NCBI GenBank assembly: GCA_965213685.1
Contig: CBDBZY010000064.1
Span: 1,440,001-1,504,000 of the forward strand
DNA length: 64,000 nt
Direction of reading: 5' to 3'
Origin: a bacterium
GTDB taxonomy: Bacteria > UBA8248
The translations under genes were made by a program, and so were the position numbers. The notes below the pieces were generated by a model. It worked only from the letters and a program-made list of their open reading frames with translations, was not told the origin of the DNA and searched no databases. Within the stretch, counting starts at the first letter, position 1, and each line of letters begins with the position of its first letter. Below, piece after piece: positions 30,511 to 51,511 of the stretch.

Positions 30511-33500
30511 TCACATTTTAGTCTCCCAACCTTGTTCAACTGTGAGTTCTATCTCTCCAGCATAAGCCTCTTCCAATCCAGCCAACACCATGCTGCCTGC
30601 AAAAAGTTTTCTCCCCAAGTGTTCTTCGGGCAGTGACTGCAGAGGGACATTAACACATCCCAGGAAGTCTGGAGTTGTTGGAGGGTAGGCAAAAGGAGAG
30701 GAGTCAAAGGTATACATGAAAATAATTAGAGAGTCAGTAGACTCTCTATGTAGGGATGCCCCGCCCATAGTGTGCGTACATTGAAAAACCGTCTTAACTC
30801 GTGAACACTCATGTTTTAAGCCTTTCTAGACACTAGCTATCCTATTCCAACATTTCTCTATCCAATGATACCCCCAAGTAGCTAAAATGTATCCCTAGAC
30901 TTACTGCCAGGAAACGGGGCAAACTGGTGATTTCTTTTTCTTTCTGATTCTTCTTAAGAGATTTTTTTCAAACGACTTTGAAACTGGCAGAAGTAATCAC
31001 CATAGTTCTTTACAGATCAACTTTAATCACTACCGCATATGATCTGCCTTAACAGCATCTTAGCATCTTCTCAAATAAGTGGAAAGTAGAAGCACTGGAC
31101 AACATGCCCATATTTGGAAGCCATTTTCTAATAATTGTCATGTGACACAAATTGCTAGCATGTGAGGGCCGGATGCCTCGCGCTTGTGCATGGGGTGCAT
31201 GCAATTGCACGAAGCCACACCCTAGCAATTTCTCCCAAGTGAAAGCTACTACATGTACCGGCCTGTGTTTCAGTAGTATCTTCCTTCACTGTTGTTGGTA
31301 GACTGTTCGTGTAGGGATGGCGCCAACACACTAATTGTGTGTGTACATACAAAAGCGTTCTTAACTAGCAGATTCTCGTGTTCTCTTCAAGCCCCTCTGA
31401 GCACCAAGAGGCATTATCCCAGCGTCTTTCAGTACGCTCCCAAGAATCAAAATTGCATCACTGAGCATGATTCCAAGTATGATCCCAAGGAAATGAAATC
31501 TTAGCAAATTGTCACGGTGGTGAACAGTACTATAACTTGGAAGCCACTGATTTTGTAAAAATAGTCAGAGAGTCAGTCAGTAGACCCTCCAAGGCTATGT
31601 ATAGGGATGGTGCCGACTGGCCCATAGTGTGTGTACATACAAAAGTCTTCTAAACTCCCCAGCGCTTGCGTTTTAGGCCATTCTAGGCACTTACCTATCC
31701 TTTTTCAGCGTTTTCTACCAAAAGATACTTCCCAAGTAGCTAAAGTCTAACAGTTTTGAGGGGCTCAGCCCCTCTCCCACAAACGTACTATCATACATGT
31801 ACATGCATACTAAAGTTGTTGATGCTTAACTTAGAGGACAACAACCTCCTGTATGGTGCTACGGTACAACAAAAACCCCCAAACAATGTAGAGGGATGTA
31901 GGGATGGCAGTGCCAAAAACCACACAAACTACATGTACATGCAGATATATGGATGGCAGTGTGCAGGCAACACACAGGACTACACAAGTAACCCCATCCC
32001 TACATCTTTTCCACTTTGAATAGAATGTGTATCTAAGCTTTGTTGTCAGATTACTGGAAACAGCATTGTGCAGATAACAAAAATGAAAAAAAAGATGTAA
32101 GGATGGGGTTACTTGTGTAGTCCTCTGTGTTACCTGCACACTGCCATCCATATATCTAGTTTGTGTGGTTTTTGGCACTGCCATCCCTACATCCTTCTAC
32201 ATTTTTGGAAAATGTTTTTCACACTTGTATAATGCACAATGTCATACATACAGTGAGTGAGACACATAACTTACTGCATAAAACACAAGTCATCTCAAAA
32301 GATGTAACCACAGAAATGATATACATGTACAAGGCAAGTGTGATGACAGGCAACAAGGAGTTTAACATCCGCCTTTTCATCCTACAAGTTCATACACCTA
32401 TAACTGCTCTTCATAATTTCCCACTGAGAAGATAGTATGAAAAATAGGAGAAATGTAACAGCAACCCTTTATTGATTCAAGAGCCTAGCGGTGTCCAAAG
32501 CAGCTACAGCCACACTCAGCAGCTCGTCAAGTGGGTATAAAGTACTGCAGGCTATGTTTGATACAATTCAGTGCATACCAAACTCTGACTCATAGCAACA
32601 GAGGAAAAGTGCCAAGGTACAGCACTGGAATTAGAATTGTTCCATTAAAAAAGGAACACACTTTTCTTGTGTTTCTCTCCTTTATCTTGACCTGCTCTAT
32701 GAAGATATGTGACAATATCATTGTCTGACTTCGACTACAAGCAACACATGGTAGTACGCAGTATTATCAGCACAATCTAAAGATACACAAAGTCACCCCC
32801 CAGCACCATTAGCAGCAGCTTATGAACGTACATGTACATGAATCTACCCATTATTCTTTTCAGTCATGTCATGCTTTACATGTACCATGTACACAGGACC
32901 CATAAGAGTTCACTGACCATTGGGCCTAAAAATGTTTTCACTGAAGACATCAATCAGTAGACCATCAGTGTCACTGAAGTCTGTGAATTCACACTGCAAG
33001 TAATGAATATCAAGGTGGGCAGTACGATATGTATAGAAAAATGATGTATGTACACATATCAAACAGCATCAACAATAGTAGGGATTTGTTGAGCCTTAAA
33101 AATTGACCTGTCCCCAAGTGTGTGTGTACCTGATAGTCCCACGAAGGATTGTACCCACCCATGACAGAGGGTGTGCGACAACGTTGCTTCCCCACTTCAA
33201 TCACACAGAAAAGGCTGAAGGAGTTGCAGTTGGCGGCCAGGCCCAGATTGCTGGCTTTATGTATGGTCAACTGGAGTTTTTTGTAGGGCTCCCCACTGTT
33301 CTTTTTTAAAGCTATGGGAAAATAATGGACAGGAGAGAGTGGATCAGGTTAGAAGAGAGGTGGGAAACAAAGATGTGTGAGGGTGAGACATATAATATAC
33401 TGCATAGAGGTTCAGGTATAGATTTCAGAATAGATCTAGCTGGCATGACAGCAACTGTCTACCTCTGTTCCCAATGAGTACATAAGTGTCAGCATGTGCT

Positions 33501-51500: not shown

Positions 51501-51511
51501 ACCCTGGACAT
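30511..51511 (-). CDS. CARD-like death-fold + S/P/Q-rich linker + intersectin-L-like PH and C2 domain protein (about 981 aa, 16 exons)
   Basis: Exon model: 51511-51365, 50730-50395, 50133-50076, 49339-49214, 48073-47882, 46942-46127, 45084-44726, 44288-44226, 43977-43906, 38547-38404, 35959-35911, 34979-34898, 33548-33463, 33311-33130, 32993-32918, 30668-30511 (2946 nt, in frame, GT-AG). PH region: RRIEWLQERV..HIQFNSKTHYGEQRELLYSGTLHK..FVVLFTDMLLV..RDIWVEDLSEAI. C2 region: KLQLTIHKASNL..FCVIEVGKQRCRTPSVMGGYNPSWD..IDVFSENIFRPNDFLG. The 5' exons are less certain than the PH-C2 exons. Confidence 0.8.
30726..32230 (+). repeat. GTAGGGATGG-motif interspersed repeat; copy 2
   Basis: actctctatgtagggatg..ccatagtgtgcgtacatt start; foldback at about 31885-32210. 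Confidence 0.75.
33605..34772 (-). repeat. GTAGGGATGG-motif repeat, inverted related copy with a near-perfect 360-bp foldback
   Basis: 33605-33752 and 33814-33964 are near-perfect inverted arms. 34420-34772 matches the 5' part of copies 1 and 2 in reverse. Fragments also at about 60825-61310 and 62460-62610. Confidence 0.8.
36180..36667. mobile_element. TIR element (about 42-bp TIRs) inserted in a GTAGGGATGG-repeat fragment
   Basis: TAGTACCCACAGCGAAAAAGTACGCCTAGTACCACTTG...CAAGTGGTACTAGGCGTAATTTTTCGCCATGAGTACTA. Confidence 0.75.
40693..40855. repeat. (CA)n microsatellite
   Basis: Read directly. Confidence 0.95.
42370..42771. mobile_element. Tc1/mariner-type MITE
   Basis: TA|CAGTAGACATCAAAATAAAGT...ACTTTATTTTGACGTCTACTG|TA, with a TACG-rich interior. 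Confidence 0.8.
43057..43097. repeat. (TA)n microsatellite
   Basis: Read directly; follows a (TACATG)n tract. Confidence 0.9.
43521..43724 (-). mobile_element. tRNA-derived repeat family A, near-full copy
   Basis: tRNA-like core bounded by the inverted pair GAGCTGCCTCAG (43579-43590) and CTGAGGCAGCTC (43649-43660), with a conserved upstream leader. Confidence 0.8.
44602..44648. repeat. (GA)n microsatellite
   Basis: Read directly. Confidence 0.95.
45530..45970 (-). mobile_element. Helentron/DINE-1-like interspersed element
   Basis: Reverse complement begins TTAACCCTTGGTGCACATGCGCCAGAGGGTT followed by (TGTC)n. Homologous to 56525-57037; partial copies at about 37045-37420 and 41160-41340. 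Confidence 0.6.

Follow-up and report, generated by a model that had tools for sequence, protein, structure and literature searches.

A candidate PH-C2 scaffold gene without a DH domain in eukaryotic DNA of a bacterial assembly

A split gene with a PH-C2 tail

The stretch of DNA analyzed here, in the following called the window, comprises 64,000 nucleotides of one contig (C64:1440001-1504000) in an assembly scored as bacterial, and its minus strand carries what we consider to be a eukaryotic gene for a PH-C2 protein. Twelve exons, from 49331 to 30511, join into a frame of 2340 nt that runs from ATG to TGA and encodes 779 amino acids. In the explanation we favor, they form one gene of a eukaryote, whose product combines a helical head, a disordered linker and a PH-C2 tail lacking a DH domain, and serves as a non-catalytic membrane scaffold. 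We hold this explanation tentatively, at a confidence slightly short of even, and our verdict on the gene is that of a lineage-restricted, non-catalytic PH-C2 scaffold.

Gene model

All 11 introns of the model are of the GT-AG type, with lengths of 136 to 5358 nt, and every phase matches. The exons were chosen from the sequence on either side of every open block, with the splice candidates listed by phase. No open frame of the window is longer than the 364 codons in which exon 3 lies, a length that none of 1000 dinucleotide shuffles attained; 15 of 1000 attained the 149 codons of the frame around exon 4. An AATAAA hexamer lies at 29517, about 1 kb past the stop codon.

A previous, sequence-only reading of the window had proposed 16 exons and 981 residues for this locus. 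Its peptides and its edges at 49339, 47882, 44288 and 30511 are borne out on the minus strand, three of these edges recurring in our model as the end of exon 2 (47882), the start of exon 5 (44288) and the end of the stop codon (30511). The fourth is a possible acceptor at 49339, which would turn exon 1 into an internal exon. Of the longer model, 12 exons and 779 residues stand in frame, whereas for the three or four further exons upstream (51511-51365, about 50730-50395 and about 50318-50195, plus the acceptor at 49339) phase compatibility is the sole support, and the third of them resembles repeat-derived sequence. We count eight exons from exon 5 to the stop, where nine had been given, and the intron in front of the PH module measures 407 nt instead of 437 bp.

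The PH-C2 tail

The C-terminal part of the predicted protein is a C2 domain, as judged from its match to the Pfam profile. C2 exon 1 (33130-33311, on the minus strand like all exons of the gene; 60 full codons) matches PF00168 with 25.7 and 24.0 bits, and with 25 bits in a six-frame search, against a cut-off of 22; the match spans profile positions 2-71 only. The remainder would be supplied by C2 exon 2 (32918-32993; 25 codons and one base), which came first among the candidates for its splice sites and phase, and by the last exon (30511-30668), which holds the end of the domain and the TGA stop codon (30513-30511). Neither of these two exons has a Pfam or PDB match of its own. The solved C2 domains closest in sequence to C2 exon 1 are those of Munc13-1 (C2B) and MCTP2, with E-values of 0.001-0.007. 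At the positions where calcium-ligand aspartates would be expected, a comparison by eye found mostly Asn, Ser or Glu, both in the window and in nine related fragments described below; the domain seems to lack most of the calcium-binding aspartates.

The C2 domain follows a probable PH domain within about 25 residues. For the latter the combined evidence is good, each single sequence match being sub-threshold. The module opens with exon 5 (44226-44288), whose 21 codons, an open frame without an ATG, form a short, helix-like lead-in. We scanned exon 5 and every later exon of at least 20 codons, other than C2 exon 1, singly against 24,736 Pfam families. The sole match of PH exon 1 (43906-43977; 24 codons) was to PH_13 (E 0.02, 15.3 bits, profile positions 12-32), and a six-frame search with PH_13 fell on the same place. 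The sole match of PH exon 2 (38404-38547; 48 codons) was to IQ_SEC7_PH (E 0.036, profile positions 33-64), and among solved chains this exon came closest to the PH domain of the DH-PH protein UNC-89 (E 0.18). Because two separate exons each match only a family of the PH clan, at collinear profile positions, we regard the PH domain as credible. The other four exons scanned in this way had no Pfam match, and PH exon 3 (35544-35587), with 14 codons, is too short for a single-exon scan; this exon of 44 nt, put forward by splice-site and phase candidates only and with a weak donor, is the least certain of the model. PH exon 4 (33463-33548) would complete the PH domain with its C-terminal helix and lead over to the C2 domain by a short link. 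Six-frame searches with the generic PH family (PF00169) and with SOS1_NGEF_PH gave no match within the gene, and a PDB sequence search with PH exon 1, at coordinates that were slightly off, returned nothing relevant.

The sequence-only reading had classified the tail as intersectin-L-type. In favor of this, PH_13 is the family that we take to cover the intersectin PH domain, and intersectin-2 (3jzy) came second (E 6.6e-4, 22.9 bits) when a profile of ten C2-exon sequences was compared with 12 solved chains. The C2 scores of Munc13-1 (22.3 bits) and MCTP2 (22.1 bits) in the same comparison, however, tie with that of intersectin-2, and an XYPPX-repeat protein scored 25.4 bits. Single-sequence PDB searches with five PH-C2 exons yielded no intersectin chain, and a record-level literature search on PF16652 and PH_13 returned nothing relevant. 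What can safely be stated from the sequence is that the tail is a PH-C2 tandem such as those that follow DH domains; the designation as intersectin-type is weakly supported.

Domains missing from the gene

That such a tandem occurs here with no DH domain was also part of the sequence-only reading, and it is upheld by a C2 match above the cut-off, the PH signals, the mere 407 nt of intron before the module and the outcome of searches for RhoGEF, the Pfam family of the DH domain. A six-frame search of the assembly with RhoGEF (PF00621), run with no positive control, had no match at E ≤ 10. On the minus strand, 150 of 179 open frames, located at 47,770-63,828, contained no RhoGEF, SH3, EH or CARD domain, which also agrees with the absence of EH domains and of an SH3 array claimed earlier; the only match was a fragment of a DDE_1 transposase (62766-62960, minus strand, E 2.6e-8). 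The 179 frames are those of at least 33 residues that passed a low-complexity filter (184 before filtering), so that the scan covers exons of 33 codons or more within the window. Of the other 29 frames, at 44,359-47,825, two are the blocks of exons 3 and 4, for which a separate scan gave no RhoGEF match. A protein that lacks a DH domain could not act as an exchange factor.

We considered a continuation of the gene past the C2 domain into a RasGAP or RhoGAP domain and rejected it, as neither is present on this contig and a separate gene follows downstream. RhoGAP had no match in the assembly, and RasGAP had matches on another contig only: on C51, at about 239835-243917 (minus strand), two C2 matches and a RasGAP match in a row mark a RasGAP-type gene that is unrelated to our finding. 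The next minus-strand gene downstream in the window encodes a calcineurin-like metallophosphatase, with exons at 25531-25761 and 24038-24310 (Pfam Metallophos, E 4.5e-12 and 1.4e-9).

The linker

Between head and tail, exon 3 (46127-46942; 272 codons) and exon 4 (44696-45084; 129 codons, ending in phase 0) encode a linker of about 400 residues that is predicted to be disordered. Residues 104-505 of the model include 68 Ser, 54 Pro and 36 Arg among 402, neither exon matches a Pfam family, and an AlphaFold model of exon 4 has almost no secondary structure (predicted template-modeling score 0.12). In a search for longer homologues of exon 3, 8000 candidates were scored and none reached E ≤ 0.001. 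Within exon 4, a basic, Ser-rich block, KHRRSASMSS (about 44837-44875), is identical in the window and in P0042, a fragment from a relative, whereas identity in the linker on either side is only about 50%. From its sequence, this block may be a kinase phosphorylation site or a 14-3-3 site.

Conservation in relatives

We searched the C2 exon against 1.84 billion representative proteins and obtained 36 matches at E ≤ 0.001. The three best relatives have 81-86% identity over 96-162 residues and four more have 39-46%. All seven are open frames of genomic DNA in which the exon reads through into the intron, and the other matches are long multi-C2 proteins with about 28% identity. In an alignment of nine C2-exon fragments, four have 78-83% identity to the window and five 35-45%, and all nine run on with the Val codon of the GT donor at the same position as in the window. 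Two of the distant fragments, P0023 and P0040, have a peptide similar to PH exon 4 just upstream of the C2 exon.

The other parts of the gene have relatives as well. For exon 2, P0037 has 98% identity and P0038, whose match spans 57% of the query, has 86%; the donor position is the same. Exon 4 and P0042 share 51% identity (67 of 131 residues), the insertions and deletions between them comprise whole codons, and the likeness ends right at the donor. For P0038, which matches exon 2, and for P0001, which matches the C2 exon, the records each give a contig of 192,927 bases in a relative, probably one and the same, on which the head and C2 ends of the gene would be linked. All fragments from relatives come from ENA or Logan assemblies. 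When we scanned genome and metagenome contigs with exon 2 and with the alignment of the C2 exon, no locus of a relative was found, and a phmmer search of the model against the 40 proteins collected gave only C2 repeats and the fragments themselves. Within the assembly, whose eukaryote-like contigs amount to about 4 Mb, a tblastn search with the spliced model recovered its own locus only, with neither a paralogue nor a separate intersectin locus. Taken together, the gene looks real and conserved, and confined to a thinly sampled lineage.

Alternative explanations

The locus could harbor two transcription units, or give rise to alternative transcripts, with a protein of head and linker that ends after exon 4 and a PH-C2 protein that starts from another first exon. 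In the window, a TGA indeed follows four codons past the exon 4 donor, and no database search returned a fused protein. In the relative, however, the frame stays open past this donor for about 95 codons, unrelated to the window; there is no conserved terminal stop, and exon 4 is therefore better understood as an internal exon with a conserved donor than as a terminal one that is conserved. Exon 5 lacks an ATG, and the 407-nt intron before it contains neither a credible ATG-to-donor exon nor an AATAAA or ATTAAA. The phases also fit across the exons: exon 5 starts in phase 0, and among exons 1-4 only exon 4 supplies this phase. As the head and C2 exons moreover appear to share a contig in a relative, the sequence favors one gene, whose exons would all belong to a single transcript, and we consider two units improbable. 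Far more improbable is that the locus is the decaying, non-functional remnant of a Dbl-family exchange-factor gene, similar to intersectin or BCR, that has lost its DH exons. Such an origin would account for a PH-C2 tandem of the post-DH kind with no DH found, the databases searched contain no transcript-derived protein, and four of six variants observed in exons are non-synonymous, a number too small to carry weight. A decaying gene would nevertheless hardly be expected to have an intact frame over 12 exons, a C2 exon retained at 78-83% identity in four fragments and at 35-45% in five, with the donor conserved in all nine, and exons 2 and 4 also kept as open frames.

The remaining alternatives concern the head, about 100 residues that are predicted to form five or six short helices. 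Exon 1 (49214-49331) starts with the ATG at 49331 and has 39 codons and one base before a GTGAGC donor; it would encode the first two helices, and exon 2 (47882-48073; 63 full codons, with acceptor and donor present) the rest. Modeled alone with AlphaFold, exon 2 forms three helices (residues 6-21, 28-37 and 42-60) at a predicted local distance difference test score of 66.4. The sequence-only reading had recognized a CARD-like death fold here, for which no sequence or fold comparison returned a match; all of these used single exons of a head that is split over two, are therefore underpowered and would be expected to miss even a true CARD. Pfam searches at E up to 10 or up to 1 gave no CARD for either exon. 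A six-frame search with CARD (PF00619), at E up to 10, had no match in the window and only one of 13.3 bits on another contig, and PDB sequence searches with exon 1 or exon 2 returned nothing related and no CARD chain. Foldseek, run with the exon 2 model, listed 26 matches at E ≤ 10, none at E ≤ 0.001 and none to a death fold; the pyrin domain of NLRP4 at rank 4 (E 4.1, TMq 0.29) we took as noise. VIA-align likewise gave no death-fold match, and a Protein Atlas search with part of P0037 no usable one. The only family near exon 2 was DUF7639 (E 0.04), which we discarded, as a six-frame search did not reproduce it and a literature search found no mention of it.

These results are what one would expect if the gene and its tail are as described and the head is an ordinary small helical bundle or oligomerization unit, which would make the protein a DH-less PH-C2 relative of the Dbl family with no link to CARD signaling. 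On the other side stand the use of half-domains in every comparison, the three helices of exon 2, whose lengths fit death-fold helices 4-6, and the position of a unit of about 100 residues directly at the start Met, an arrangement that many CARD adaptors share. The helix lengths and hydrophobic spacing of the head look CARD-like, and we see the chances that the head belongs to the death-fold superfamily as about evenly balanced. The complete scenario of an ordinary bundle we regard as somewhat unlikely. The more elaborate scenario, of a true CARD that a regulated, disordered linker tethers to a calcium-independent PH-C2 anchor without a DH domain, in a gene confined to a poorly sampled animal lineage, which would nucleate CARD-CARD signaling of the caspase or NF-kB type on phosphoinositide-rich membranes, we consider unlikely.

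Several observations weigh against our favored explanation of a single gene for a non-catalytic scaffold. The 1.84 billion representatives include no spliced or annotated full-length orthologue. The matches to PH_13 and IQ_SEC7_PH are both below the Pfam cut-offs, PH exon 3 and C2 exon 2 owe their place in the model to splice-site logic alone, and the six-frame RhoGEF search had no positive control. The head, examined as half-domains, has no CARD or death-fold match in Pfam, PDB sequence, Foldseek or VIA-align searches. The four sequencing runs that cover the unique parts of the window are DNA contigs of one study, and the joints listed in them are all in repeats and have short sides; the six exon variants in these runs (four non-synonymous, two synonymous) are too few to weigh.

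Proposed role

If the single-gene explanation holds, the PH-C2 tail could hold the protein on acidic or phosphoinositide membranes, while the head would mediate protein-protein contacts or homotypic self-association. The disordered linker might then act as a regulated tether, for which phosphorylation-dependent control at KHRRSASMSS seems likely, and the whole protein, having no DH domain, would work as a non-catalytic membrane scaffold.

Should the head prove to be a CARD, the gene would join a death-fold module to a lipid-binding tail, in the setting of an invertebrate-type immune system, and would offer a testable route for placing CARD signaling on membranes. Should it not, the gene would represent a PH-C2 cassette of exchange factors that survives without the catalytic DH domain, which bears on the cassette's own role. 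Either way it would be a product of domain shuffling in a lineage for which hardly any annotated proteins exist. Since animal genomes often show domain shuffling of this kind, and the CARD identity of the head is unproven, we consider the finding to be of modest interest.

Genomic context

The assembly comprises 7.97 Mb in 71 contigs and is scored as one bacterial genome, 94% complete and 3.7% contaminated. Its contigs form two groups by G+C content, many with 62-69% and another set with 42-54%. The contig of the window, C64 (1.64 Mb, 44% G+C), belongs to the latter, and is the largest of six sizeable contigs in this set that appear eukaryote-like, followed by C18 (0.81 Mb), C41 (0.59 Mb), C16 (0.53 Mb), C51 (0.48 Mb) and C7 (0.42 Mb). 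As the window contains microsatellites, dispersed repeats and split genes with GT-AG introns, we conclude that it is eukaryotic DNA. Most likely it represents host contamination of the bacterial assembly, and the source of the gene is probably an animal. The presence of megabases of eukaryote-like contigs in an assembly scored as bacterial is relevant to any of its users.

Repeats in the introns of the gene, for example at 31728-32391 and 33056-35047, reach word depths of 10^4 to 10^5 in the DNA runs, and the unique parts of the window have depths of about 15-150. Several copies of dispersed repeats in introns of the window have a similar translated motif in common. Elsewhere on the plus strand of the window we observed an exon that encodes the beginning of a DEAD-box helicase domain (12647-13021; E 8.7e-6, at the cut-off), a fragment of a reverse transcriptase (9579-10046; RVT_1, below the cut-off) and a weak match to zf-AD, the zinc-finger associated domain (22452-22949; E 1.5e-4, below the cut-off).

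Comparison with known systems

The long isoforms of the intersectins, ITSN1-L and ITSN2-L, have the order EH-EH-coiled coil-SH3x5-DH-PH-C2. The gene resembles them in its predicted PH domain, short link and C-terminal C2 domain, but differs in its head and Ser/Pro-rich linker, and no EH, SH3 or DH domain was found in it. Its connection to the DH-PH proteins UNC-89 and obscurin is through PH exon 2, whose best solved match is the UNC-89 PH domain. The C2 domain resembles Munc13-1 (C2B) and MCTP2 in generic C2 features, yet these are multi-C2 or MUN-domain proteins, unlike the product of the gene.

In CARD adaptors such as BCL10, a Ser/Thr-rich region comes after an N-terminal CARD; the gene product likewise begins with a predicted helical unit of about 100 residues, followed by a long region of low complexity, but its head gave no CARD signal in any search. 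A record-level literature search for an architecture of CARD, PH and C2 domains found none described, and such CARD adaptors are not known to carry a PH-C2 tail. In the order of its parts, the gene resembles BCR, in which an N-terminal oligomerization unit and a Ser-rich region precede PH and C2 domains. BCR and ABR are DH-PH-C2 proteins, and unlike such members of the Dbl family, the gene combines this order of parts with neither a DH nor a RhoGAP domain.

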